This document shows positions 1,959-30,728 of a stretch of DNA of 43,189 nucleotides, one piece after another. The notes under the pieces are model-generated. The model worked only from the letters and a program-made list of their open reading frames with translations. It did no database searches and had not been told where the DNA came from. The stretch covers positions 1 to 43,189 of the IMG/VR virus record IMGVR_UViG_3300036793_000087, one strand, 5' to 3'. Position 1 is the stretch's first letter. Every line of letters begins with the position of its first letter. A program made the translations under genes and the position numbers. The DNA comes from a virus. Its lineage: Duplodnaviria > Caudoviricetes.

Positions 1959-4571
1959 TCAGTTGCCCCGATAGAAGCCGCGGAATTCGAGCGGCGTGCC
2001 GGAGTAGATGTGCCGGATCTTGTAGGTGATCTTGTCCGAGGTGAACACCGAGCCGACAGTGGCGTCGGACTGCACCAGGAGATCGGGCTCCTGCTTGCCC
2101 TGGTAGAAGCCGAGCTCGATGGTCGGCACCATCGCGGGATCGCCGACGAGGTACCACGTCGCCGAGGCGAGCGCGGAGAAGTAGTCGACGACGATCGGGG
2201 TCAGGCCCTGGTGAATGTTGGGGGTGTTGGTCGGGCCGGCCGGGGTCGCCGGGATCGCCACCGCGGAGGTGCACAGCTGGAATGCGAGTTCCTCCAGGTC
2301 CGGCGGCACGATCAGGAACTTCGGCACGATCGACAGCAGATCGGTGGCGTCGCCGAAGGCCGACTGCTTACGCATCTTCTTGCGGCCCAACGAGAGGTTG
2401 GTCTGCGAGAGGGTGTTGCCGGCGTCGACGTTGTTGTGCCCGGCGGCGAACAGCGCGGTCGAGTCGAAGCTGCAGGTCGCGTTGGTCTGCATCATGTCCC
2501 AGACGAACCGGAACAGCGTCTGTGCGGCCGCCAGGCCGAGCTTGACCGGGATACGGGTAACCGCCCGCAGGTCATCGTTGGCGATCGTCTCGATCGTCAG
2601 GTCCTCGGTGCCACCGCGCTTGGTGATCCCGTAGGTCACTTCCTCGTTGCCGGGCGTGGTGAGCGCCTGGTACGGGGCGCCCTGGTTGACGCCAGGCAAC
2701 ACACCGTAGCCGCCGAGGCGCTCGATGCGCTGCGTCCGGAAGTCGTTGACCGGCACGATCGAGGAGATGATGCTGCGCCAGGTGGACAGCGTCGGCTGGT
2801 TGTACTCGGCGATCATGCGCCGAGTGACCGAGTCGCCGAGGATCGTGTTCCAGGTGCCGGACACGACGGACTCCGTCGAGCGCAGCGAGGAGTCGAAACC
2901 GGCACCGTTGCCGACGGACTCCGCGAGGATCTTGCGGTTGATGTCGGCAGTGTCGAGCAGGCCGGAGCGGTAACCGGTGATGTCGGCATACGCCTCCTTG
3001 AGGGACTTGTATCCCTTGGAGAAGTCGCCGTCGAACGAGGCGTTGAGCGCCTCGATCTTCTTGTCGACCGCTTCTTGGCCGACCTCGACCGATGTGATGC
3101 TGGGGGTCAGGCCCTGCTTCTCGAAGCCGGCCAGCAGACCCTTGACGGTCTCCACCTGAGCGAGCAGCTCGCCCTCGGTGAAGTTCTCCGCCAGCATGCC
3201 GGTGACGGTCTCGACCACGCGTATCGTGGCGGTCTCGGGGAAACCAGCGCCAGACACCGCTTCGCGGATGGCGATCTTGCCCATCAGCGACTTGCTCGTC
3301 AGCTTGGGGGCGTCCGGGTCCTCCACGATCGGAGCGGACTCCGTCACGGGGGTTGGCACTGCAGCCGAGGCGAGACCGGCGGCAGCAAGCTGCTCGGGGG
3401 TCGCGGAGGCGGCGAGCGCGAGCAGCTCTTCCAGCGTCATCTCGTTCTCCTGATCTGTTTCGGTACCGCCGGCCACCATGCGAGTGGCGCGGCCTCCGGC
3501 AGCCGGGTCGGCTACCACGTCCGCGGAATTCACGGAGAGGATCTTGGTTGCTTCCGACAGCCGGCGGACGCCGTCCACGATGGTTCGGTAGTTGGCCATC
3601 ACGTCGTGGCTGATACCGACGAGCCCGGCGAGGCCGGCCTCCTGCGCCGCGAGCGAGGCGTCGAGCGCCTCTGCGGTGTGTGTGGCCGACGGCAGCAGGT
3701 GCAGGTCGCCATAGATGCCGTCGTCCTTTACTTCGACGTCGCGGTAGGAGCCGACGAGGCCGAGGATGGTGGACGTCTTGAGCTCGGCCTCGGTGCGGTG
3801 GTGGTCATAAGCCTTGGCGCCCTCGTACAGCGACGCCGCTTCGGTCAGTACCTCGGCGGGGTAGCGGCGCATGTTCTTCGAGTCACCACTCGCGATGATC
3901 CGGACGCCGAAGATCCGGCCCCCCGCTGCGTCCGAACCCTTCGCCTCGACGAGGTGGCCAGTGATGGAGTCGGCTTCCTTGCGCGACTCGGTCACCGGTT
4001 CCGCTGCGAGCGGCTCATAGGTCGTGGTGGCCTGCACCTCGATGGGCGTGCCGAGCGTTACCGCACCAGCCGCGTCCATCGCGTATGTGACCTTGAACTG
4101 GTCGTCGCTCATTCCGGAGCAGTAGACCGCCCAGTCCGGACCGATGTCGACCACGTAGATGTAGACGTCCTTATCGAGCTGATTGCCGATGGCATCGGCC
4201 TGCTGCTCGAGCTTGTCCTCGATCGCTGCCTGCACGATTCGCCGGATCTCGTCGAACGAGCCGGTGGTGACCGCCTCGGTGGTCGCCTGCGGCGCGGGTA
4301 GCTCGTCGATCTTGGTCAGCTCGGACGACGAGAGCCCGAGGTAGTGACCGGTGGGCTTCCATCCGTCGCCGTCCTTGGCGTACATCTCGACACGCGCAGC
4401 GGGCTCGAGGTCATTGCCTTCGACCTTCACGGGCACGGCCGGCACCTTGCCCTTGTGTACGGACTTGATGCGTCCCTTGGCCACGCCGGTGGATGCCGAC
4501 CAGGACACGAAGTCCTTGGCCTTCACGCTCACGACCGCGCCCTCGGTGAGGCGCCCGCTACGGCGTCGCAT
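1959..4571 (-). CDS. Capsid polyprotein: Tudor-like N-terminal domain + maturation protease + scaffold + Mu gpT-like major capsid protein (870 aa)
   Basis: Protease-like block (VRIIASGDSKN..RYPAEVL..AYDHH..VGISH..SADVVADPAAGG). Capsid block (VNDFRTQR, TIETIANDDL, PKFLIVPPDLE, IELGFYQG, YKIRHIY..EFRGFY). Follows the portal. Confidence 0.9.
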   Translation of the reverse strand: MRRRSGRLTEGAVVSVKAKDFVSWSASTGVAKGRIKSVHKGKVPAVPVKVEGNDLEPAARVEMYAKDGDGWKPTGHYLGLSSSELTKIDELPAPQATTEAVTTGSFDEIRRIVQAAIEDKLEQQADAIGNQLDKDVYIYVVDIGPDWAVYCSGMSDDQFKVTYAMDAAGAVTLGTPIEVQATTTYEPLAAEPVTESRKEADSITGHLVEAKGSDAAGGRIFGVRIIASGDSKNMRRYPAEVLTEAASLYEGAKAYDHHRTEAELKTSTILGLVGSYRDVEVKDDGIYGDLHLLPSATHTAEALDASLAAQEAGLAGLVGISHDVMANYRTIVDGVRRLSEATKILSVNSADVVADPAAGGRATRMVAGGTETDQENEMTLEELLALAASATPEQLAAAGLASAAVPTPVTESAPIVEDPDAPKLTSKSLMGKIAIREAVSGAGFPETATIRVVETVTGMLAENFTEGELLAQVETVKGLLAGFEKQGLTPSITSVEVGQEAVDKKIEALNASFDGDFSKGYKSLKEAYADITGYRSGLLDTADINRKILAESVGNGAGFDSSLRSTESVVSGTWNTILGDSVTRRMIAEYNQPTLSTWRSIISSIVPVNDFRTQRIERLGGYGVLPGVNQGAPYQALTTPGNEEVTYGITKRGGTEDLTIETIANDDLRAVTRIPVKLGLAAAQTLFRFVWDMMQTNATCSFDSTALFAAGHNNVDAGNTLSQTNLSLGRKKMRKQSAFGDATDLLSIVPKFLIVPPDLEELAFQLCTSAVAIPATPAGPTNTPNIHQGLTPIVVDYFSALASATWYLVGDPAMVPTIELGFYQGKQEPDLLVQSDATVGSVFTSDKITYKIRHIYSGTPLEFRGFYRGN

Positions 4572-10385: not shown

Positions 10386-10567
10386 GCAGACGTCCGCTTG
10401 GCCTTGTTCATCTTCAACGGGAACCGCGGGTACGTGATTGCTGCCGCTCTGCCCAGCGCCAGCTGGTGGTAGGCCCGGCGGTAGTAGTTCAATCCCCACG
10501 GCCGATGCTCGGCCCAAACGGTGGCCACAGCGGCACCAATGGCGGCTGCGGCGAGTAGTCGGGTCAT
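10382..10567 (-). CDS. Hypothetical protein (61 aa, hydrophobic N-terminus)
   Basis: ATGA and GTGA coupling on both sides. Confidence 0.6.
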   Translation of the reverse strand: MTRLLAAAAIGAAVATVWAEHRPWGLNYYRRAYHQLALGRAAAITYPRFPLKMNKAKRTSA

Positions 10568-13500
10568 GAGGCGTCCTTCCAGGCGTAGGAGGGCTCGGAT
10601 GCCTCGGCTTTGATGGGCACTCCGGCCAGCGTGGTTTCCATGGAGGCCACAAGTGCGGCAGTCGCGTCGGCCGCTTCGGATTCGTCGATTACGGCCACGA
10701 TCTCGTCGTGCACGGGCAGCAGCACGGCGTCGGCCCAACGGGTCTCGCGCCAGCGCATCAGGGTGTCCACCAGCAGCTCGCGGGCAGTGCCCTGGATGCA
10801 GTAGTTGGGCGCCGCGTGCGGGCGCATCTTGGGCAGGTGGATCACTCGTCCGGCGTAGCTCGGGAATTGCGTGTGCCCGCTCTTGACCGCGTCGGACACG
10901 GACCGGGACCAGGCAGTCAGCTGCGGTGTCATCGCATCGAGGGTGTCCACCATCGAGGCCGCCTCTGATTCGCTGATCCCCAGCGTGCGGGCGATGCCGG
11001 GTATGCCGCTCCCGTAGAGGCGGCCGAATACGCCGCGTTTGACGTTGTAGCGATCTTCCTTGCTGGCTTCGGGGCCGTAGACCTGGCGGGCGATCTCCCA
11101 GTGCAGGTCAACGCCGGCGGCCAGCATCTGCTGCAGGTTCTGGTCTCCGGACAGCGCGGCCGCCACCCGGATCTCGACACTGGCGAAGTCAGCGGACACC
11201 AGCAGCGAGCCGGGGTCGGCCGTGATGCAGGCGCGGATGCCGCCTTGGCGGGGCATCTGCTGCAGGTTGGGCCGCACGCACGACATCCGGCCGGTGTCGG
11301 CGCCCAGGGTGTAGATCGTCGGGCGGGCCCGGCCGTCACCGCGCTCCACCAGGACCCGATAGGGCTCGAGGAACGTGCCCAGCACGGTGTCGTGGTGGCG
11401 GTACTGCAGCACGTTGCGGACCAGGTCGCCCACCGCGCCGTCGGCGTTCTTGAACGGGTCGAGCACGCCTTTGGCCACCGACAGCCGCCCGGTGCGCGTA
11501 CGGGGCAGCTCAGCGCCGAGAGCGGCCAGCGCTGCACCCACCTGCGGATCGCTGCCGGGGTTGTCGATGCCGGCCTTGCGGACCAGTTCGCCGGCGGCGG
11601 CCCGGGCGGCGGTGTGCACGGGGATCAGCTCGGCCACGTGCTCGCCGTCGATGCGCATGCCCTCATGAGCCACGCGGGCGGTCATCCGCTGGGCGGTGCG
11701 CTCGCGCTCGAGGACGGCCGACGGGATGGCGGGGAATGTCTTGTGCAGCGCGGCGGTGTCCAGCACGTCGGAGGCGGCGTAACGGACCATCGTGGTACAG
11801 CGTGAATCCACCTGGGCCCAGCCGGAGCGCTCGAGCGGCGTGGTCGGCTTGGTCTCGGTCAGCCACTTGCCGGCCTTGAACAGGGCCGATCGGGCCTCCT
11901 CGGCAGCCGTCGAGACCGCACCCAGACCGAGCACCGCCTCGGCGATCTCCTTGAGGCCGCTAGCGTCCGAACGCGCCGAGCGCGGGTCGGTCAGCTTGGC
12001 CGGGATGACGGTGTCGTGCATGCGATCCCAGAGCGAGTCCAGGTCCAGCGACGAGGCGATCGCCACCGGGATCAGATCGGCAGTTGCTGAGAACGCGTGC
12101 AACATCGCGGCGGCCTCAATCAGACCGCACGCAGCAGCGAGCTGGTCCTGGTCGCCGGCGTCGAAGACCGCCACAACGTGCTCGTTGCCGATCTGGATGG
12201 TGCGCAGCGCGTAGTCGGGGTGCCCGATCGGGTAGCCCGTGTGCTCGACGTCCACGGTGAGCTCGGCGAGCATCCCGAAGGCGTCGACCAGCTCGGCCAC
12301 GGCACCCAGCGCGATCGGGCGGACCGCGCCGTCGCGGGTGACCACGGCCGGCATGGTGAGGATCTCGCCGCCGGCCTCGGCGATCGCATCGGCCAGCGCC
12401 TGAGCCTTGGCGGCGGCCTTCTCGGCGGCGCGCACCGCGGGATCGACCTTGACCCGCTTCGGCTTGGCCGGGACGGGTGCCGCAGCTGCTGCCGCCGCGG
12501 CCGCCTTCTCGTCGTCGAGCCGGTGGGCCTCGGCCTTGTTCGCCAGCAGCAGCTGGGTGAGTGCCGAGACGGCCGGTCTCGCCGGCTCAGGCTTGGCCGG
12601 TGCTGGTTCGCCCGGATTCGCCTCGCCGACCGGTGTGCAGGGGGTGGAGGGGGCTGGTGCAGGGGTTGAACCGGCTGCATCCCCCGTATTTGCTGGGATT
12701 GTGCAGGGTGTGCAGGGGGTGGGGGGTTGGTTGTCCGTCTGTGGCTCATGTATGTGCGTGCGCGCGTGTGCGTATGCGCTTAAATGGTTTGAACCCTGCA
12801 CCCCCTGCACCCCCTGCACCGGAGGGCTGTTTTCCCCAGTGTTTACGGGCGTTTCGGAGGGTGCAGGGGTTGTGTCCGTACCCTGCACAACCCCTGCACC
12901 GGACAGCCACGAACCGAGGGACCTGATGCGTAATGCCCGATAGTGACCGGCGCGCCGCTTGACTACGGGGTAGCCGAGTTTGCCCAGTTCCATTCCCCAC
13001 TTGGTCATGGTGGGTGTGATGCCGTCGCGCATGCCCATGTCGCGGGCCCAGTCCACGAACGCTCTGCGCAGCTCGTGGGAGGGGGTGCCGGCGTCGTCCG
13101 GCTCGCAGGCCGCCTCGATCCAGGCCCTGACGGTGTTCTGCTCGGCCGCGATCTCCTCGGCGCGGTAGCGGTAGCGCTCGGGTGCTGATTCGGTCCTGGC
13201 GGTGGTCTCGTCGGCCAGCCAGCCGGCCGCCTCGCGCATCAGCGCAGCCAGCACGCCGGGGGCCTCGGCCCGCCACGCTGCGCCGGCCGGGCTGCCGATG
13301 GCGCGGCGCGCTGCGATCACCTCGACCGGGTCGCCCTCGCAGGGGACGAGGCGCACCCGCCGGCGCACTGCCGGGTCGGTGAGCAGCGGCGGCTCGTTGG
13401 CGGTCAGCACCAGGGTGTGGGTGGGTGTGAACGTGATCGGGTTGCGGCCCATGTCGTTGCCGGTGAGCTCGCCGCCGCCGGTGAGCTGCTTGAGCCGCTC

Positions 13501-15360
13501 CTGGCTGGCCGAGCTGTCCCGCGGCGCCTCGTCGATGAACGAGAGCCGGCGGCCTTTGAGCGCGGTGACGATCGAGGCGTGCGAGCGATCGGTGCCGCCC
13601 AACAGCCGCGGGTCCGCGGCATGGGCGTAGGAGCCCAGCACGCTCATGATCAGCACGATCACCTGCGTCTTGCCGCGGTCACCCTCGCCGACCAGGATGG
13701 GCAGCACCTTGGCCGCGTCGCCGGTGACGGCGACCGAGAGCACCCGCAGCGCCCAGGCCCGCAGCTCGGGGTCAGGCCACACGGCGGCGGTGAAGGCGTC
13801 CCAGAGCGGCGTGGGCAGCGCGACCGGGGCGACCGCGGCCGCGCGCAGGTGCGGGGTGGCCGGGTCGATCAGCGCCGGGGTGGGCTGGGCGTAGCTGGCG
13901 CGCAGGTCCCAGGCGATCCCGCCGGCCCACAGCAGCCACGGGTCGCGGTCGAGCTCGGCCGCGGCGACCGAGCACGGATGGGTGCCGCCGGCCAGCAGCG
14001 CGCGCATCTTCCTGGCGATCGCGCCGGACGGCCCGCCCGACATGAACCGCCGGCGCCGCGCGGCCTGGATGAACGCCTCCGAGCCTTTCTCGGCGTCCGG
14101 GTCGCCGTGCGGCATGAGCCCGGCGACCTCGGTGACCGCCCACTCGGACAGGTCGGTGAGGTCCTCCCAGTATTCGGGGCCGCGGCGCAGCCAGCCGTGC
14201 GAGTCGTAGGCGTAGCGCATCACCGGATACATCCGCTCGAGCACGCACTGGCCCAGCGGGTGGTCCAAGTGGAAGGGCGGGTCGAACAGCTGCGCGCCGA
14301 TGATCTCCCGGGTGCTCCACGGGCGCGGCGGCGCGATCGGCTCGGCCGGGTCAGCGCCCGGCACGGTTCCCGGTGCGGGTGCGGGCACGAGGGTGAGGCC
14401 CATCGCCTCGAAGCACGGGTCACGGTCGACCGGGGTGGTGCGGGCCAGGCGGGTGACGGCCTTGCGGGCGGCGGTGACGAACATCCGCAGCCACTCCTCG
14501 CCGCGGTCCTCGCCGGCGGTGATCTGCTCCCACAGCGCGCTGAGCTCGGCGAACGCGGCGCCCAGGCCGGGGTGCCCGTCGGCTGAGAGCTGGATCAGGT
14601 TCCAGGCCCGGTCGTCGGCCGCGTCGTGGCGGGTGCCGCTGGTGGAGGCCTCGATGAGGCGCTGGGCGTCGAGCAGGGCGCTGGCCATCTGCGCGCAGGC
14701 GGGCCGATCGTCGTAGAAGATCGCCGACCACATCGCCTCGCCGGCCGACTGCGGCGCTGCCAGGTCGCTGGCGCCGGCCGCGCCCTCGCGCAGGCCGTCC
14801 ACCCAGGCCTGCGGCAGTTCGGGCAGCTCGGTGGGCTTGGGCGGCTCGCAGGCCAGCCCCTGCGGGTCATACCACCGGTAGATCGCGCCGGCGCCGACGT
14901 GCACCGAGGGCCAGACGACGGCGTAGCGGTGGTGGCGCTGGATGATCTCGACGTCCGGGCCGAGCACCGTGGCGTAGCGGTCCACCGGGACCCGGTAGAA
15001 CATGATCTGGCTCGGGCCCGGGCCGGTGTCGCTGCCGCGTGCGGTGCTCGACCAGGTGGCGGGCAGCGGCCCCCAGCGCTGCCAGGCGTCGTTGACGGTC
15101 GCGGCGCCGTGCTTGGTGACGCTGCCTTTGACGTACTCGTCGACGTCGATGCCGATCACGCCCTCAGGCATCCGGACGGCGATCGAGCTGTCGGCGTGGC
15201 TGCCCGCCCAGCGCACCAGCTGCTCCGGGTCGGCGTCGACGCCGCTCGCCCCGGTATAGCCGGCCGGCGGCGGCGTCTTGGTCTCCGGAGGCACCGGGAC
15301 GACAGGCCACCCCGCCAGGGCGTAGGTCGCCACGGCGTCGGCGAACGGGCGCAGGTTCAT
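10564..15360 (-). CDS. Fused replicase: AEP primase-polymerase + D5/SF3 helicase + 3'-5' exonuclease + family A DNA polymerase (1598 aa)
   Basis: Prim-Pol VIGIDVD and RYAVVWPS. SF3 Walker A GEGDRGKT, Walker B SFIDE, motif C TAN. Exonuclease VDVEHTG and YAASD. PolA TGRMSC..PNLQQ, motif A ADFASVEIR, motif B RYNVKRGVFGRLYG, motif C VHDE. Confidence 0.95.
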   Translation of the reverse strand: MNLRPFADAVATYALAGWPVVPVPPETKTPPPAGYTGASGVDADPEQLVRWAGSHADSSIAVRMPEGVIGIDVDEYVKGSVTKHGAATVNDAWQRWGPLPATWSSTARGSDTGPGPSQIMFYRVPVDRYATVLGPDVEIIQRHHRYAVVWPSVHVGAGAIYRWYDPQGLACEPPKPTELPELPQAWVDGLREGAAGASDLAAPQSAGEAMWSAIFYDDRPACAQMASALLDAQRLIEASTSGTRHDAADDRAWNLIQLSADGHPGLGAAFAELSALWEQITAGEDRGEEWLRMFVTAARKAVTRLARTTPVDRDPCFEAMGLTLVPAPAPGTVPGADPAEPIAPPRPWSTREIIGAQLFDPPFHLDHPLGQCVLERMYPVMRYAYDSHGWLRRGPEYWEDLTDLSEWAVTEVAGLMPHGDPDAEKGSEAFIQAARRRRFMSGGPSGAIARKMRALLAGGTHPCSVAAAELDRDPWLLWAGGIAWDLRASYAQPTPALIDPATPHLRAAAVAPVALPTPLWDAFTAAVWPDPELRAWALRVLSVAVTGDAAKVLPILVGEGDRGKTQVIVLIMSVLGSYAHAADPRLLGGTDRSHASIVTALKGRRLSFIDEAPRDSSASQERLKQLTGGGELTGNDMGRNPITFTPTHTLVLTANEPPLLTDPAVRRRVRLVPCEGDPVEVIAARRAIGSPAGAAWRAEAPGVLAALMREAAGWLADETTARTESAPERYRYRAEEIAAEQNTVRAWIEAACEPDDAGTPSHELRRAFVDWARDMGMRDGITPTMTKWGMELGKLGYPVVKRRAGHYRALRIRSLGSWLSGAGVVQGTDTTPAPSETPVNTGENSPPVQGVQGVQGSNHLSAYAHARTHIHEPQTDNQPPTPCTPCTIPANTGDAAGSTPAPAPSTPCTPVGEANPGEPAPAKPEPARPAVSALTQLLLANKAEAHRLDDEKAAAAAAAAAPVPAKPKRVKVDPAVRAAEKAAAKAQALADAIAEAGGEILTMPAVVTRDGAVRPIALGAVAELVDAFGMLAELTVDVEHTGYPIGHPDYALRTIQIGNEHVVAVFDAGDQDQLAAACGLIEAAAMLHAFSATADLIPVAIASSLDLDSLWDRMHDTVIPAKLTDPRSARSDASGLKEIAEAVLGLGAVSTAAEEARSALFKAGKWLTETKPTTPLERSGWAQVDSRCTTMVRYAASDVLDTAALHKTFPAIPSAVLERERTAQRMTARVAHEGMRIDGEHVAELIPVHTAARAAAGELVRKAGIDNPGSDPQVGAALAALGAELPRTRTGRLSVAKGVLDPFKNADGAVGDLVRNVLQYRHHDTVLGTFLEPYRVLVERGDGRARPTIYTLGADTGRMSCVRPNLQQMPRQGGIRACITADPGSLLVSADFASVEIRVAAALSGDQNLQQMLAAGVDLHWEIARQVYGPEASKEDRYNVKRGVFGRLYGSGIPGIARTLGISESEAASMVDTLDAMTPQLTAWSRSVSDAVKSGHTQFPSYAGRVIHLPKMRPHAAPNYCIQGTARELLVDTLMRWRETRWADAVLLPVHDEIVAVIDESEAADATAALVASMETTLAGVPIKAEASEPSYAWKDAS
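12635..12899. repeat. Iteron-like array, putative replication origin inside the replicase linker
   Basis: Ten perfect copies of GTGCAGGG/CCCTGCAC, five in each orientation, around an alternating purine-pyrimidine tract and TTAAATGGTTTGAA. Confidence 0.75.
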
Positions 15361-16663: not shown

Positions 16664-17004
16664 GCTGACGCCTCGACCTTTGTGCGGCGGGCCAGCACTG
16701 CACCGGTGACGCTGTTGCACAGCCCGCATGCCGGCCGGATGTTGTTGCGCCGGTAGGTGCCGCCGAGGCAACCGGGAATGATCCGGTCGACAGTCACCGT
16801 GTCGGCGGTGAGCAAACGTCCGCACCGGTAGCACCGGCATGCTGGGACGCCGTCGTTGATCCAGACCGAGTTGACGTAGCCGTCTGTATCGACGACGACA
16901 TCGCAGTCTGCTCGGAACGTCTCGATCAGCCAGATACGGCGAGCGAGCCGGTCGGCCGACGATCCGCGGTCGTTGCGATTGGTCGTGCCGCGAGAGGCCG
17001 TCAT
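16660..17004 (-). CDS. HNH-fold protein (114 aa)
   Basis: CYRCG..TVDRIIPG..GGTY..NIRPACGLCN; has DR in place of the usual DH. Confidence 0.75.
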   Translation of the reverse strand: MTASRGTTNRNDRGSSADRLARRIWLIETFRADCDVVVDTDGYVNSVWINDGVPACRCYRCGRLLTADTVTVDRIIPGCLGGTYRRNNIRPACGLCNSVTGAVLARRTKVEASA

Positions 17005-17471
17005 CGCAGCGCCGCTTTGCTCATCGGGTCGCGGAATCCGCTCTGCACGGCCGCGTAGAGCGCGTGCCGGGCAGCGTCCCGGGCGTGGCCCATGCCCGCG
17101 GTGGGATCGAGCAGGCCGGCTGCGGCGAGCTTGCGGTCGGTGGCCCACGGCTTGACCTGGCCGGCCGCCCGCAGCACGACGTCGTCGCCGAACTCGGCGG
17201 ACAGCGCGCCGATCAGGTTGCGGGTGATCCGGCCGGCTTCGGCGCTGCCCGAGCGGCCGCTGCGCGGGCCGACCACGAACTGCTCGACGGCCACGATCGT
17301 TTTTGTCGGCTGCATGAAGCCGTGCGCGATCACGTCTGCGAAGAACATCGTGCTGTAGTGATCGCACTGCAGGATCACCGGATCGGACATCGCGTCGACG
17401 TCGCTGAACAGCAGCGCGACGATGCCCGTGGTGGGACCGGGGTCGATCCCGATCACGAGGGTGCTGGTCAT
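17001..17471 (-). CDS. RuvC-like Holliday junction resolvase (156 aa)
   Basis: VIGIDPGPTTG, VAVEQF and HARDAARH motifs, ATGA-coupled start. Confidence 0.8.
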   Translation of the reverse strand: MTSTLVIGIDPGPTTGIVALLFSDVDAMSDPVILQCDHYSTMFFADVIAHGFMQPTKTIVAVEQFVVGPRSGRSGSAEAGRITRNLIGALSAEFGDDVVLRAAGQVKPWATDRKLAAAGLLDPTAGMGHARDAARHALYAAVQSGFRDPMSKAALR

Positions 17472-18681: not shown

Positions 18682-20457
18682 CTAGGACGCCTTTCGGAGT
18701 TGGCGGATGGATGCGCCACCGAGCAGCTCGGCGACGATGCGCGGGTCCTGGACGAGGTCGGCGAGCTGGCCGGCCTTCTCGCGCAGGACCGATCGCACGC
18801 GGGTGTCGATGGTGTTGGCCGCGACGATGTCGACGATCTCGATCGAGTCGTGGATCTCCGAGCCGATCCGGTGGCAGCGGTCCTCGGCCTGCAGGCTCTC
18901 CACCAGCGACCAGGGCCGCTGCAGGAACACCACGGTGGAGGCCGCGGTAAGAGTGATGCCGACACCGCCGGCGCCGGTGGTGGCGCAGATCAGGTCCAGC
19001 TCGCCGGCCTGGAACTGGGCCACGGTGTCGGTGCGGTCCTTCATCGACTGGCCGCCGATGATGTAGCCGACCCGGTATCCGGCCTTGGTGGCTGAGTCGG
19101 CCGCCAGGCGCATCAGCTGTGCGCTGGGGGCGAAGGCCACGGTCTGCTTGCCGGGGCGCTCCTCGAGCACCTCGAGCAGCGCGTCGACCTTCCAGGACGG
19201 TGCGGCCAGCCGGACCGAGACGTGTTCCTTCTCGGTGCCGTCCTCGACCTGCTCGACGGTGACCGTGACGTCGGCGGCCGCGCTGGCCAGCTGCGAGAGC
19301 CGGGTGAGCTGGGCCAGCACGCTCATGACCGAGATCTCGCTGCCGTCGGGCATCTGCGCGAGCATGTCGTGCTCCATCGCGTCGTATGCCTTGCGGTAGG
19401 GGCCGGGCAGTTCGACGGTGCGCACCGAGTAGACCTTCGGGGGCAGCTGGTCGAGCACGTCTGCCTTGGCGACGCGGCGCTGCTGGCCGAGCAGCGACAG
19501 CCGGAACTCGGCCTCGGTGCCCGGGTTGAGGCCCAGGATCATCTCGCCGTAGTCGGCGGGCACGGTAAGGCAGTAGCGGTTGACCCAGCGCTCCCGCGAG
19601 GGCCACGCGCCCGGCGCAAGGCACACCAGGGTGGGCCAGAGGTCGGCGGGGTGATGGGTGATCGGCGTGCCGCTCAGTGCCACGAACGCCTTGACGTTGC
19701 GGGCCAGCCGGCGCACGGCCTGACTACGGGCCGCCTGCGGGTTCTTGATCAGGTGGCACTCGTCGGCGACCAGGGCGACCGGGTTGAGCGCGATCAGCGG
19801 GGACTTGCCGGGGTTGGTGTCGCCGGCGTCCATCCGCGCGGTGTCATAGCTGGTGACGTAGACGTCGGCCGTGCCGATCATCTCGCGCCGGCGCTTCGGT
19901 GAGCCGCGCCAGGCGGTGGTCGTCCAGTAGGGCGCCCAGTTGCGGAACGCCTCCACCCACGGGTCGACGACACTGGCCGGGCAGACGATCAGGATCGGCA
20001 GGTTCATGCCGTCGAAGTCCTGGGACCATTCGGCCAGGCCGAGGATGGTGGTGATCGTCTTGCCGGTGCCGGGCTCGTCGGTGATCATGGCGTGCCCGGT
20101 GCTGGCGATGAGCAGCGCGCCGTCGACCTGATAGGGGCGCGGTGTCAGGTGCTGCGGCACGTCGATCTGCAGGGAGTCGCGGGCCTGTGCGCTCCGGACG
20201 CCGGCCTGTTGGTTGATCCAGTCCTGCAGCCGCGGCCCGGGCACCCACGCGCCGCCGTAGATCGCCGCGAGCTGCACGACCGCGGGCCAGGTCGCCGGCA
20301 GCACCAAAGCGCCCTTGGGGTCGCTCTGCTTGATCAGCGGCGTCATCTGGCCCAGCTGCTTGGCCGCGTACGCGACGTCGGCGATCGGCCCGGCGGCAAC
20401 CAGCACAATGCGGTCGCCTGCCTGGGTCAACTCGGCGTGGATGGCGGTTGTGGACAT
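18682..20457 (-). CDS. SNF2-family (SF2) helicase (591 aa)
   Basis: DEPGTGKT, ADECH, SGTP, GVGITLT and QAEDRCHRIG motifs. Confidence 0.93.
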   Translation of the reverse strand: MSTTAIHAELTQAGDRIVLVAAGPIADVAYAAKQLGQMTPLIKQSDPKGALVLPATWPAVVQLAAIYGGAWVPGPRLQDWINQQAGVRSAQARDSLQIDVPQHLTPRPYQVDGALLIASTGHAMITDEPGTGKTITTILGLAEWSQDFDGMNLPILIVCPASVVDPWVEAFRNWAPYWTTTAWRGSPKRRREMIGTADVYVTSYDTARMDAGDTNPGKSPLIALNPVALVADECHLIKNPQAARSQAVRRLARNVKAFVALSGTPITHHPADLWPTLVCLAPGAWPSRERWVNRYCLTVPADYGEMILGLNPGTEAEFRLSLLGQQRRVAKADVLDQLPPKVYSVRTVELPGPYRKAYDAMEHDMLAQMPDGSEISVMSVLAQLTRLSQLASAAADVTVTVEQVEDGTEKEHVSVRLAAPSWKVDALLEVLEERPGKQTVAFAPSAQLMRLAADSATKAGYRVGYIIGGQSMKDRTDTVAQFQAGELDLICATTGAGGVGITLTAASTVVFLQRPWSLVESLQAEDRCHRIGSEIHDSIEIVDIVAANTIDTRVRSVLREKAGQLADLVQDPRIVAELLGGASIRQLRKAS

Positions 20458-20541: not shown

Positions 20542-21441
20542 TCAGCCGCTCGGTGTGCCTGTGAGACGCGCGAGCAATTGCTGCTGCTCCGGCGAGAGGT
20601 CTGCCGGCGGCTGAGGTGCCGGTGCTGCTGGGACCTGCTGTGCGGGCTGCTGAGCTGCCGGTGGCGGCTGCGGGAACGGCAACGACGGAGCCGTCGCCGG
20701 TGGCGCGTACGCCTGCTCTGGCTGCGGCGGCTGGGCGTACTGCTGGACCGGAGCCTCCGGCTGGGCGGCCGGAGCCGCTTGCTGGGGTGCAGGTGCCGGA
20801 GCGGCGCCGTCCGGGCGGGTGTAGATGACCTGGAACTGCTTGGCCGGGTTCATCCCCGCGCCCGCCTGCCGATCGCTGACATAGGTGATGTCGATGATCG
20901 AGCCGGCCTCCGGCGGTCCGGCCGGCGCACCGACCTCGCTCATCGCGCGCACCAGCTCGTCGCGCGCCTGGCCCTTGACGAACCAGGTGCCCAGCCCGTC
21001 CGGGTGCTCGGCGCTCGGGTACATCTGCAGCGGGACCTTCATCACGAACTTCGGCCGGCCGTCCTTGAAGAACTGGGGCCGCTGCAGGGTGTCGGTCTGC
21101 TGCTGGATGTCGCCGGGGCCCAGAGGCCGCGTGACGACACCGACGAACCGGGTGCCGATCACCTTGAACGCCAGCGACTTCCCGCCGCCGGCCGAGGGCT
21201 GGTTGAAGAAGTCGTCGATGCTGCCGGTGGCCAGCGGCTGGGCGGGCGGCGCCATCTGGGGCTGCGGGTAGCCCTGCGCCTGGGGGTATTGCGGTGGGTA
21301 CTGGGGCTGCTGCGGGTACCCCTGCTGCGGGTACTGAGGCAGTTGCCCCGGCGCGGCCGGGTAGCTCGGTTGCGCCGGGTACTGCGTCGGCGGCGTAGGC
21401 GGCGGCGTTGGCGGGAAACCGGGATAGGTGGGCTGGGTCAT
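20542..21441 (-). CDS. Putative ssDNA-binding protein with P/Q-rich termini (299 aa)
   Basis: Core GGGKSLAF..GTRFVGVV..QQTD..FKDGRPK..WFVKG..PEAGS resembles actinophage SSB-like proteins. ATG at 21441 follows GAAAGGA. Confidence 0.65.
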   Translation of the reverse strand: MTQPTYPGFPPTPPPTPPTQYPAQPSYPAAPGQLPQYPQQGYPQQPQYPPQYPQAQGYPQPQMAPPAQPLATGSIDDFFNQPSAGGGKSLAFKVIGTRFVGVVTRPLGPGDIQQQTDTLQRPQFFKDGRPKFVMKVPLQMYPSAEHPDGLGTWFVKGQARDELVRAMSEVGAPAGPPEAGSIIDITYVSDRQAGAGMNPAKQFQVIYTRPDGAAPAPAPQQAAPAAQPEAPVQQYAQPPQPEQAYAPPATAPSLPFPQPPPAAQQPAQQVPAAPAPQPPADLSPEQQQLLARLTGTPSG

Positions 21442-21463: not shown

Positions 21464-22130
21464 TCAGCGGGCGGTGAGCATGCAGGCGTAGGCCTCGGCG
21501 ATCTGTTCGTCGCTGATGACCGGCTGCACGTGTTCGGTGAGCGCCTCGAACAAGTCGAAGGCGCGTTGAGCTTGGGACAGACGAGCTCCCGTCTGTCCAA
21601 CTGCGTCGGCGGCGTAGGCGGCGGCGTAGGCGGCGGCGTAGGCGGCGGCGTCGGCGGCGTAGGCGGCGGCGTAGGCGGCGGCGTAGGCGGCGGCGTTGGC
21701 GGCGTTTTCAGGACTGGGGTCCGAGATCCATTAGCTCGGTTGCTTCGATTGCGCGCAGCGCTCTGTCCCTGCGGGTGTCCGGTACCAGATGAAGAACCGA
21801 TCGCGCCTGGTCGACTGCGACCTTGACCCACACGATGTGGCGCTCGTGCTCGGTCAGCGCCAGCGTCCCTGTTCCGACCGTCCGGTGTCCGAGCTCGAGG
21901 ACGAGCATCGAGCAGGGCGGGCAGAGCAGATCGCCGTCACGGTGCGTGCAGATGTTGTCGTTGACCCCCTGCACGATCCGGGCCAGCATCGGGTCGGCGC
22001 AGCTGGGCAAGTCGGTGATCGTGGTGTCGCCGGACTCCCAGCTGATGAGGTTCATGGCGCAGCCCTTACCGCTGCCTGCGGCGTGGCTACCGACAGCGAG
22101 GCGCAGGGGCTCAGTGATGTTGTTCGTCAT
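21464..22130 (-). pseudogene. Ala/Tyr-repeat protein split by a 1-nt frameshift near 21731
   Basis: ORF 21708..22130 stops early. The +1 frame continues WISDPSPENAANAAAYAAAY...QRAFDLFEALT...MLTAR* to 21464. Confidence 0.7.
21600..21704. repeat. Tandem array of (GCC)2-3(T/G/A)AC units, mostly 12 bp
   Basis: About 9 units of ggcggcggcgta with gtc and gtt variants. Confidence 0.9.
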
Positions 22131-22143
22131 TGCAGGGCTCCTT

Positions 22144-22968
22144 TCAGAGCGTCTTGGGGGTGGCGGTCCCGGGGCATCCGGGACCGCCGTCTCGTGCGGA
22201 CTGCGGCCGGTAGAACGGGCAGAAGTAACAGCTGTCCGAGTCAGGTGTCAGTGGGATGTCGTTGAGCGATAGCCGGCCGTTGATCAGTTGCTCCGCCAAT
22301 TGCTGGCGGTGTGCTGTCTGGGCGAAAACCTCCTGCAGCAGGAGGTCGTCGGCGCTGGTGTATGTCCGCTCCCAGACGTAGAGCCCGTCAAGGCTCGACG
22401 CGGTGCGCGGGTATGCCGCCAGCACGACCCGGCGGACGGGCAAGCCCATGCGCCGGTACCCCTCGCCGTACAGCACGAGCTGCACGACGTACTTCCTCGA
22501 CGGGCCGTTGGCCGATCTGACCTTGGCCATTGACGACTCGGCGAGAAACTTGTGGTCGACCACCGCTTGCTCGGCCGCGTCGTACAGGTCGGCGGTGCCG
22601 GGGTGATCGGGGTGCGGGGTGACCCGTTGCTCGGCCACCCACCGCAGGACGTTGTGCCGCACGTTGTCGGCCGTGAAAGCATCGGCCGCCCAGGCGTGAC
22701 AGGCGGTGCCGACGATCGAGGGCCAGGGGTCCAGCACGTGGTTGGTGGCAGGAAGCCGGGCCATCTTGCCCGCCACCTGCCGGTCACACGGCTCGCCCAG
22801 CTCGGACGGGCCCAGGTGTGACTGCAGGCTGCGCGGCGCCCGGGCGGCGTGCTCGGTGAACACCCGGCGCAGCTCTGCCGCGTAGCGCGATGCCCAGGCC
22901 GAGCTGCCATTCAGCGGCGCCGGCGCTGTCGACATGAACTCCGCGGGGCTGATATTGACGGCTGTCAT
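22144..22968 (-). CDS. Cas4-like / PD-(D/E)xK exonuclease (274 aa)
   Basis: GPSELGEPCDR, GTACH, GTADLY..VVDHK, QLVLYG and CYFCP..C (four-Cys pattern). Confidence 0.85.
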   Translation of the reverse strand: MTAVNISPAEFMSTAPAPLNGSSAWASRYAAELRRVFTEHAARAPRSLQSHLGPSELGEPCDRQVAGKMARLPATNHVLDPWPSIVGTACHAWAADAFTADNVRHNVLRWVAEQRVTPHPDHPGTADLYDAAEQAVVDHKFLAESSMAKVRSANGPSRKYVVQLVLYGEGYRRMGLPVRRVVLAAYPRTASSLDGLYVWERTYTSADDLLLQEVFAQTAHRQQLAEQLINGRLSLNDIPLTPDSDSCYFCPFYRPQSARDGGPGCPGTATPKTL

Positions 22969-29017: not shown

Positions 29018-29773
29018 TCAGGTTGCCGAGCGGATCGTCCAGAAGTCCGAGGCCAGGTCTGGGTCGGTCAGGAATGTGTAGGGCATCAGGAAGTGGCCGT
29101 TGATTCCCCAGTCGGTGCCCCAACTGTTGCGGACCAGGAACATCCCCTTGGCGTCGTCGTAGCCGACCACGGCGACACAGTGCCCGCCCACGATCTGCTC
29201 ACCCCGCTGAGGCATCGGCACGACGCCTGTGGCCGCAACCTCGGGCGACTCGAAGGACTCGAAGACGGTGAAGCCGATGTCGATCGGGAATCCCTCGGCG
29301 AGACAGGCCCGCATGTGAGTCAGATCCTGCGGGACCCGCCGGTAATCGACGTCGACGTTGGCCGCTGCCGCCTGCACAACCTCGGGCGGTGGCTGGACCG
29401 TGAACTTGTCGATGTCGTATGGCCACAGCGACTCGGGCGCGATGCCGAGCGTGGTCGCCTTGATCGCGTCGCGGATCTGGCCGCCGGCGTCCTGGCCGAC
29501 GGTGCCTTCGATGGCGCGTGTGTTGTAGTACAGCTGCAGCCGCGACAGCATCGGGTCGCCGGCGCCGAGCTTGTTGGCCGCGAACAGGAAGCAGCCCAGG
29601 GTGCCGTGCGCGGTGCACGAGCCGAGCTGCTCCTGATTCCAGATCGGCGGCATCGCCGGGGCGGTGGACAGGTCGACCAGCGCGGGCAGCTGCGCGATCA
29701 CGGGCGCCGGCGCAGCGTAGGTCAGGTCACGTGGGTCGTGATCGTCCTTGATCCAGCCGTAGGCGTTAGTCAT
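29018..29773 (-). CDS. Papain-like (C1) cysteine peptidase (251 aa)
   Basis: Q..LGSCTA (catalytic Cys), GGHCVAVVGYD (His), RNSWG..WG..G (Asn), and YGW..D..D.RD N-terminus. Confidence 0.92.
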   Translation of the reverse strand: MTNAYGWIKDDHDPRDLTYAAPAPVIAQLPALVDLSTAPAMPPIWNQEQLGSCTAHGTLGCFLFAANKLGAGDPMLSRLQLYYNTRAIEGTVGQDAGGQIRDAIKATTLGIAPESLWPYDIDKFTVQPPPEVVQAAAANVDVDYRRVPQDLTHMRACLAEGFPIDIGFTVFESFESPEVAATGVVPMPQRGEQIVGGHCVAVVGYDDAKGMFLVRNSWGTDWGINGHFLMPYTFLTDPDLASDFWTIRSAT

Positions 29774-29936
29774 CGGACCCGCCGCAGTTTTCGGCCGACC
29801 GAATAGCCAGGCTGATGCCGGGTGGCGGGACGTCTGTGAGTCCTTCGGCATAGAGCTTGGTCCAGCTCCGGATCCAGAGCCACATCGCCACTGCGCCAGC
29901 GCCAGGCAGCGCCAGGCCGATCACGAGAATCCTCAC
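29766..29936 (-). CDS. Small membrane protein (56 aa, MRILVIGLALPGAGAVAMWLW...)
   Basis: GAAAGGA RBS, one TM segment, fills the gap. Confidence 0.45.
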   Translation of the reverse strand: MRILVIGLALPGAGAVAMWLWIRSWTKLYAEGLTDVPPPGISLAIRSAENCGGSDD

Positions 29937-29955
29937 ACCAAAACTTCCTTTCGGC

Positions 29956-30186
29956 TCATCGCCAGATCGCGAACACGAGGTGCACGGAAAGCCAGATCAT
30001 GAAACCGGTCAGGAGGACGTGGGCTGTGCCCCACTGCCAGACCGTTTGGCCCGGGAGCACGTTGCACCAACGCCAGATGGCCTCGGACAGCGTCCACTCG
30101 GGATGCTTGGTGACGATCGCGACCGTCTCCACCCCGCCGAATCCGATCAGCAGGAATCCGGCCCAGTACCAGTTGAACCAGGTCAT
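29956..30186 (-). CDS. Trp-rich two-TM membrane protein (76 aa)
   Basis: MTWFNWYWAGFLLIGFGGVE..TLSE..W..WLSVHLVF; TGATG-coupled to the PLD gene. Confidence 0.75.
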   Translation of the reverse strand: MTWFNWYWAGFLLIGFGGVETVAIVTKHPEWTLSEAIWRWCNVLPGQTVWQWGTAHVLLTGFMIWLSVHLVFAIWR

Positions 30187-30728
30187 CACGCCGCCTTTGC
30201 TGCCATGACTTCGAGGATGTGGTCGTGGGCGATGTCGAGGACCGACCGTGCCCTCGCGCAATGCATCGCATCGCGGACGACGGTGAGCTCGTTGTCCTGC
30301 AGCGTCTCGCCGCTGGTGCTCCAGTTCGTCGAGCCGCCGATCCACCACAGGCCGTCGACGATGACCATCTTGCGGTGCACGATGGCGCCCTTCTCGGAGC
30401 GCCCGATCGCCACCGAGTTGCCGGTCATCTCGTGCTTGAACTTCTCGAGGATCGCCTTCTCGTGAACCCCGCCGGCCTGCGACGAGTCGAGGGTGATCTG
30501 CACGTGCATATTCGGGTTCAGCAGCGCGCTGTCGAGCATCGCCGCGAGCTTGTCGTCGTCGTAGCCGAACATCGACACGACGACCGAATGCAGCGCGGAG
30601 CCGATGACCCTCTGGAGCACCAACGGGACCTTGTCGATCGGCGCGTAGAACGACCGGATCATGTCCAGGCTGCCCACGGGCGGGGCAGCGAGCAGGAACT
30701 CGTCCAGGTCGGCGATGCTGAGGGTCAC
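30186..30728 (-). CDS. Phospholipase D-superfamily protein with a single HKD motif (180 aa)
   Basis: HRKMVIVDG-x5-GSTNWS...NE motif. Confidence 0.9.
   Translation of the reverse strand: MTLSIADLDEFLLAAPPVGSLDMIRSFYAPIDKVPLVLQRVIGSALHSVVVSMFGYDDDKLAAMLDSALLNPNMHVQITLDSSQAGGVHEKAILEKFKHEMTGNSVAIGRSEKGAIVHRKMVIVDGLWWIGGSTNWSTSGETLQDNELTVVRDAMHCARARSVLDIAHDHILEVMAAKAA

Follow-up and report, generated by a model that had tools for sequence, protein, structure and literature searches.

A phage primase-helicase-polymerase gene with a predicted replication origin in the DNA of its translated linker

The fused replicase gene

The virus record IMGVR_UViG_3300036793_000087 (43,189 bp with 93-bp direct terminal repeats; the whole of this stretch is called the window below) comes from a soil phage and encodes integrase, terminase, capsid, and tail genes, and it carries a gene predicted to encode a single-chain replicase, P0001. 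This gene and the array of short repeats (iterons) in the DNA of its linker are the subject of this report. As stated in an earlier note on this DNA, the gene is one uninterrupted frame of 1598 amino acids (aa). It is encoded on the minus strand, its start overlaps the upstream gene in an ATGA and comes with a ribosome-binding-like AGGAAGGA, and its stop codon is overlapped by the ATG of the following gene. Pfam identified, in order, Prim-Pol (PF09250; aa 12-183), DUF5906/SF3 (aa 556-664), and DNA_pol_A (aa 1258-1588); matches to D5_N (aa 381-528) and to an exonuclease (aa 1025-1208) fell below the cut-off.

A protein search returned 454 matches among 7990 candidates scored, and the best 119 after the query are full-length relatives of 1507-2142 aa. 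In read run X1, one contig spans the P0001 open reading frame (ORF) at a depth of ~24 with 0 differences. Because X1 is possibly the source of this DNA and locus L001 is near-identical to the window, neither is independent, and independent support for the intact frame comes from the 119 full-length relatives. On that basis, a frameshift or assembly artefact was rejected; no stop or frameshift, which the earlier note had considered for the linker, was found there. P0001 is a real, conserved gene for an all-in-one primase, helicase, and proofreading polymerase.

We scored motif conservation in a 120-row alignment of the window protein and its 119 relatives. Primase motif I (D72/D74) is kept in all 120 rows, and the same is true of Walker A (G558/G563/K564), Walker B (D610/E611), motif C (N655), and the arginine finger of the SF3 helicase; of exonuclease motifs I-III (D1037/E1039, D1095, and Y1194/D1198); and of PolA motifs A, B, and C (D1391; R1437/K1441/F1445/Y1449; H1551/D1552/E1553). 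The Pfam order and these residues bear out the motifs listed in the earlier note for all four enzymes. The primase has no motif II histidine. Primase position 138 is E in 115 rows and D in 5, and its assignment to motif III is by position. No 5'-3' nuclease domain was seen in the polymerase part of P0001. Within the motif II region of the exonuclease, aa 1090 is Phe in the window protein and His in 119/120 family members.

A model of aa 1-320 (predicted local distance difference test score, pLDDT, 93.8) had the pRN1 primase (E 2.6e-5) and the NrS-1 primase (E 6.5e-4) as its top matches, at template modelling (TM) scores of only 0.3-0.46. A second model, of aa 345-816 (pLDDT 90.8), matched D5/E5, the PrimPol of African swine fever virus (ASFV), and PriRep of the Staphylococcus aureus pathogenicity island SaPI5 (Z 24-26 for D5/E5 and PriRep); against SaPI5 PriRep (7ola), 382 residues aligned with Z 24.8 and a root-mean-square deviation of 4.9. 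This model ends in helices and a hairpin that form a winged helix (WH), a domain missing from the earlier note's list of primase, helicase, exonuclease, and PolA. The WH was compared as part of the aa 345-816 model, and several structural alignments extend through it.

Iterons in the linker DNA and residues of the wing

The linker between the WH and the exonuclease was described in the earlier note as long and Pro/Ala-rich. It is indeed rich in Pro, Ala, and Thr; what that description missed is that its DNA forms an iteron array, which is translated. The word GTGCAGGG occurs 12 times in the genome versus 2.9 expected, a count that 0/100 shuffles reach, and 10 of the 12 copies fall within 265 bp, five on the plus strand (12635, 12657, 12701, 12710, and 12861) and five on the minus strand (12794, 12803, 12812, 12881, and 12892). 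The array, which starts 16 bp past the WH coding sequence, is the top-ranked 400-bp segment of the genome for repeated words. The linker peptides VQG-VQG-VQG and PCT-PCT are the same word translated from opposite strands. A scan for promoters and terminators gave results at chance level, and GC skew showed no turn at the array, although this measure is uninformative for a one-strand genome.

For comparison across the family, 172 fused locus records were reduced to 71 distinct loci at <97% helicase identity. The top linker word reaches at least 7 copies in 49/71 linkers versus 4/250 coding control windows from the same genes, and the GC content of third codon positions is 0.67 in linkers versus 0.91. 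The set was selected to have an open coding frame in all 71 linkers; the two other frames are closed by stops in 69 and 71 of 71, so high GC does not explain the read-through. The linker ranges from 116 to 372 aa and is barely conserved, and the iteron word differs among members (TGACGGGT, TGGAGGGT, TGCAGGGT, TGAAGGGT, and TGGCGGGT). In the unfused relatives L200, L275, and L276, a similar array is non-coding and lies directly before polA, and in L110 the frame stops within the array, close to the contig end.

Other features of the linkers were also recorded. A CAGGTCA-like box, possibly a second binding site, lies between the iteron groups in 50/71 linkers and is constant despite the iteron word; the window version is divergent. 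Just before the non-coding array of L200 (L200:8664-8685) are two TGTGGATAA words, which we take to be DnaA-box-like, and the window has none. Four fusions with unrelated front halves of the P4-type D5 or AAA_25 kind (L206, L228, L236, and L238) carry inverted arrays of 9-11 copies in their linkers, and in L216, L220, L256, and L023 the linker repeats do not stand out.

Two bases of the iteron word vary with two residues of the wing. Based on mutual information across 56 labelled loci and 1083 alignment columns, residue 801 is the strongest predictor of base 3 (z 9.8), and residue 806 is that of base 4 (z 10.4). His801 occurs with A at base 3 in 25/25 loci, whereas other residues at 801 occur with A in 5/31. 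At base 4, Asn806 occurs with A in 15/16 loci and Lys or Trp806 with C in 28/28; the combination of His801 and Asn806 is found with AA in 3/3 loci, and the window phage has Lys801/His806 with CA. When the word was instead read from linker peptides (101/120 labelled, a noisier and partly overlapping set), Asn806 accompanied GA in 16/17, His801 accompanied AC in 73/74, and Lys806 accompanied AC in 65/74. In the modelled wing hairpin, residues 801 and 806 sit on facing strands. From these sequence comparisons we infer a code in which His801 would specify A at base 3 and Lys or Arg801 mostly G or C, and in which Asn806 (His806 in the window phage) would specify A at base 4 and Lys or Trp806 C.

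The two variable bases change 16 and 14 times on a 54-leaf helicase tree. Across 9 phylogenetically independent pairs, base and residue change the same way in a mean of 8.0 and 8.6 pairs and the opposite way in 0 (median p 0.008 and 0.004). Between L027 and L029, which share 94% helicase identity, 18/18 variable bases changed along with 3/45 fixed bases and 99/428 other linker bases, and the wing changed by H801R and K806N. The L029 array is mixed, with about five TGGAGGG and four TGCAGGG beside Arg801/Asn806, and it may have been caught midway through a specificity switch. In 19/35 cases, the linker that is nearest once the variable bases are masked carries another word, which argues against import of a cassette as the only cause.

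Carriers, neighbouring genes, and exchange of polymerases

Members of the fused family abound in soil metagenomes and among prophages, on contigs of about 40 to 210 kb, and the named carriers all belong to the actinobacteria (Jatrophihabitans, Prauserella, Micromonospora, Labedaea, Nocardioides, and Kribbella). No cultured phage searched carries the fusion: of 50,697 records, the 5000 best-scoring include none that covers 80% of P0001, and the best helicase-domain matches among those listed are only 27-28% identical. A further 400 genomes from the class of genome G001 yielded 0 close members, with only 4 candidates scored per genome. Among 28 short relatives (E up to 1e-60), most end within the linker or lose frame, and they could not be called unfused.

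A replication and recombination cluster accompanies the replicase gene, and its genes are conserved in 20-23 of 24 loci (Table 1). Of the four neighbours named in the earlier note, the SNF2 helicase was confirmed by Pfam. The supposed Cas4-like nuclease is an exonuclease by PHROG, with a PD-(D/E)XK match in 3/10 relatives scanned (2 above the cut-off). The RuvC call has the GIDPG motif in its favour, and the product matched no RuvC family or structure. The presumed single-stranded DNA-binding protein (SSB) is a PHROG 1911 protein whose identity as SSB was not confirmed; profiles of the SSB and RuvC candidates gave nothing significant against solved structures.

Table 1. Positions in the window of the replicase gene, its domains, the repeat array, and neighbouring genes
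Feature	Position	Strand	Evidence
Fused replicase ORF P0001, 1598 aa	10564..15360	minus	ORF, Pfam, protein search
Prim-Pol (AEP), aa 1-195; DxD 72/74, E138, invariant Q141/H143/H144/R145; usual motif II site without His	14776..15360	minus	Pfam, model, alignment
Helical bundle behind primase, aa 196-320; putatively PriCT-like from position and fold	14401..14775	minus	Model helices; pRN1 and NrS-1 primase matches
D5_N and SF3 helicase, aa 345-735	13156..14328	minus	Pfam, model, alignment
Winged helix (WH), aa 736-815; wing hairpin strands aa 799-802 and 805-812	12916..13155	minus	Model; aligned to D5/E5, SaPI5 PriRep
Codon of wing residue K801 (covaries with iteron base 3)	12958..12960	minus	Covariation
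Codon of wing residue H806 (covaries with iteron base 4)	12943..12945	minus	Covariation
Linker, aa 816-999, poorly conserved	12364..12915	minus	Alignment
Iteron array, predicted origin	12635..12899		10 GTGCAGGG copies and one TGGAGGG variant at 12645
Alternating purine-pyrimidine tract, 33 bp, array centre	12747..12779		Beside short A+T patch near 12780-12790
3'-5' exonuclease, aa 1000-1215	11716..12363	minus	Pfam, alignment
Family A polymerase domain, aa 1216-1598; F1445 in motif B	10567..11715	minus	Pfam, alignment
RuvC-like by motif only; present in 20/24 loci	17001..17471	minus	GIDPG motif
SNF2-type helicase; present in 23/24 loci	18682..20457	minus	Pfam
PHROG 1911 protein, SSB identity unconfirmed; present in 22/24 loci	20542..21441	minus	PHROG
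Exonuclease, PD-(D/E)XK-like; present in 22/24 loci	22144..22968	minus	PHROG, scans of relatives

Elsewhere in the window, a 12-bp tandem repeat of 8.4 copies (21603-21705) lies upstream of the PHROG 1911 gene. A papain-family protease and a PLD-like protein are encoded beside a probable lysin gene at 29018-30728, which is unusual for a lysis region. The capsid protein encoded at 1959-4571 is 870 aa long, and its capsid domain covers only aa 571-868; the front part may be a fused protease or scaffold.

Other fusion partners of the family's PolA clade are a second Prim-Pol subfamily, which has kept the canonical histidine in a TPSGGxH motif, further helicases of the D5 type, a combination of Prim-Pol and AAA_25, and DUF3854. 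Conversely, the family members L036, L038, and L109 have a PolA of the type found in Pas55 of the Actinoplanes phage phiAsp2. In two of four pairs compared (L233/L228 and L116/L247), the DNA shared with the polymerase donor starts 6-27 bp past the last iteron. During evolution, the origin would stay with its helicase while polymerases are exchanged just downstream, and genes would fuse or split at this point.

Some members carry additional sequence or breaks. Insertions of ~230-350 aa occur at three sites of PolA in L014 (9191-14782, with Hint and HNH matches), L016, L031, L039, L101, and L102, and L220 has a LAGLIDADG insertion in the helicase; all of these are probable inteins. Frame breaks between exonuclease and polymerase, which may be introns, inserted genes, or true splits, occur at L197:8652-11251 (2.6-kb gap), L266:4260-5986 (1.7-kb gap), and L033:11104-11339.

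Interpretation and comparison with known replicases

We propose that P0001 is a one-frame replicase whose linker DNA, a mirror-image array, is likely its origin and is likely read by two wing residues of the same protein, and we put the probability of this reading at roughly 70%. On balance, we also think it probable that, throughout a widespread replicase family, translation of the origin yields the tether between helicase and polymerase, and that the family has a separable two-residue wing code (801 for base 3, 806 for base 4) whose specificity has shifted at least 14 times through concerted changes in ~10 repeats.

Parts of this arrangement have parallels. SaPI origins consist of 6-12 oppositely arranged short repeats that directly follow the rep gene and are bound by the WH (PMC9371898), and the PriRep5 wing enters the major groove to read oppositely arranged iterons (bioRxiv 10.64898/2026.10.17.759575). 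P0001 resembles SaPI PriRep5 and Rep1 in its SF3 ring fold with a C-terminal WH and in the facing repeats right after the WH coding sequence (10 copies, 5+5 here). However, the SaPI origin lies outside the rep frame, has an A+T-rich centre, and has no polymerase attached (PMC9371898), whereas the P0001 array, with a purine-pyrimidine tract at its centre, is translated in frame to form the tether to PolA. Lambda O likewise has its origin within the coding sequence of its own reader, as proposed for P0001 (PMC4926192), but it recruits the host helicase through P, whereas the P0001 chain carries helicase, primase, and polymerase. In begomovirus Rep, as in P0001, a few initiator residues are matched to the iteron sequence and vary between close relatives; however, Rep is a rolling-circle initiator of single-stranded DNA plant viruses whose change is ascribed largely to cassette recombination (PMC2974675), whereas P0001 has a WH wing and appears to switch in place. 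A wing code of an SF3 winged helix for iterons was not found in the literature searched.

By analogy with SaPI PriRep and D5, the protein would form hexamers, its wings would contact the repeats of the gene's own linker DNA by insertion into the major groove, and one ring would load itself on each side of the array and move 3'-5' on the leading-strand template. The N-terminal Prim-Pol would then prime, and the C-terminally tethered PolA would extend with proofreading, its tether standing in for a clamp. As P0001 has no 5'-3' nuclease, primer removal would need host enzymes or a neighbouring nuclease.

Several observations weigh against this reading or parts of it. At the array, the lowest 60-bp GC value is 0.58 and the centre is at 0.58-0.63, so that the A+T-rich core of SaPI origins is missing; about 9/71 linkers have <5 copies of their top word, and the unfused L198 and L255 have no array in the stretches scanned. 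The covariation was first spotted by eye and tested afterwards, the protein-blind rule labelled 56/71 linkers for both variable bases and dropped 15/71, the residue groupings of the independent-pair test were chosen after seeing the table, and the tree was a quick search on 54 helicase rows without the WH that left out L009 and L248 (short helicases). The code has exceptions in L007 (D801/R806 with GA), in L117 (H806 with C), in the five loci with A beside a residue other than His801, and in Arg806, which occurs with A, C, or T. The comparison of the window with L004 is also less clean than that of L027 with L029, with changes in 13/20 variable, 2/50 fixed, and 139/432 other bases. As for polymerase exchange, the shared DNA of L170/L237 starts ambiguously within the array edge, and L194/L269 has no break near the last iteron. 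Unfused PolAs nest inside fused clades in a FastTree tree with long branches, so that fusion by read-through of an ancestral origin is only one possible order of events. Finally, the motif II histidine of the primase is missing in 120/120 family members, where the site reads S-Q/R/G-I. Other AEP families have also lost this histidine and have a downstream Arg (PMC5862659), so primase activity is plausible from the sequence.

Other explanations of the array account for some of the same data. The repeats might be a by-product of a low-complexity linker peptide without any DNA function, in keeping with its Pro, Ala, and Thr content; however, the same word lies on both strands and gives unrelated peptides in different frames (VQG, GAG, and PCT), it is also found outside coding sequence in unfused relatives, and it changes in concert at all copies, which makes this explanation extremely improbable. 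If instead the wing bound the array as an operator or roadblock limiting expression of its own gene, with replication starting elsewhere, the position of the array inside the transcript and its lack of an A+T-rich core would fit, and covariation as such shows matching rather than initiation. We regard this as quite unlikely, given that facing short repeats directly 3' of the WH coding sequence are the SaPI origin layout (PMC9371898) and that the array is the strongest of its kind in the genome and persists in unfused relatives. The array could also be an origin read by another protein, with wing and iteron covarying through linkage as one recombination cassette: the wing codons are only 45-60 bp from the array, and swaps of Rep-and-origin cassettes have been described in begomoviruses (PMC2974675). 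Yet the signal falls on 801 and 806 and not on neighbouring columns except 805, the two residues predict different bases (with AA where His and Asn combine), and the different word in the closest linkers fits a switch in place rather than import. We therefore consider linkage very unlikely.

A further possibility, which is compatible with an origin in the linker, is that the single frame yields separate working parts, either because the linker is cut or because PolA is also made from an internal start. The linker is long and barely conserved, unfused relatives exist, and the polyprotein of apicoplast PREX is processed. However, the linker shows no conserved cleavage motif, the stops in the two other frames of nearly all 71 linkers speak against it, and an in-frame start with a ribosome-binding-like word is present in only 13/71 linkers, at scattered positions, and is absent from that of the window phage. 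Separate products thus appear unlikely.

Apicoplast PREX has an SF4 helicase. It is, like P0001, a primase-helicase-exonuclease-PolA polyprotein, with a Toprim primase of an unrelated class (PMC10201439), and the contrast in primase and helicase classes drawn in the earlier note is supported. The earlier note's suggestion that an all-in-one phage replicase was undescribed is not supported, as two triple fusions of phages, 1706 gp55 and phiAsp2 Pas55, were already described by Kazlauskas et al. 2016 (PMC4889955). Pas55 (DnaG-type primase, SF3, and PolA) is the product of an actinobacterial phage and, like P0001, a primase-helicase-PolA chain in this order (PMC4889955), and its PolA groups with those of L036, L038, and L109. 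However, its primase is DUF3854 rather than Prim-Pol, only the PolA part aligns with P0001 (25%), and the Pas55 gene shows no iteron array beyond the control level (5 copies of its best word). Compared by description, gp55 of Lactococcus phage 1706 joins AEP, SF3, and a replicative polymerase in one chain as P0001 does, but its polymerase belongs to family B rather than family A (PMC4889955). AEP-PolA fusions without helicase are known from another PolA cluster (PMC10201439). The combination of AEP, SF3, and PolA was not found in the literature searched, and the supplements and Figure 2 of PMC4889955 may list further architectures. All-in-one phage replicases are thus already in print, and the interest here lies mainly in the translated origin and the testable code.

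In this family, one gene carries an initiator, a helicase, a primase, a proofreading polymerase, and probably its own origin. This would make it possible to test how a ring with six tethered polymerases might divide leading- and lagging-strand work, as well as how an initiator and its origin change specificity together, for which the covariation names exact point mutants. If the code is true, the natural variants AC, GA, CA, AA, and GC are candidate orthogonal replicons for actinobacteria, and mutually orthogonal one-gene replicons would be readable from sequence.

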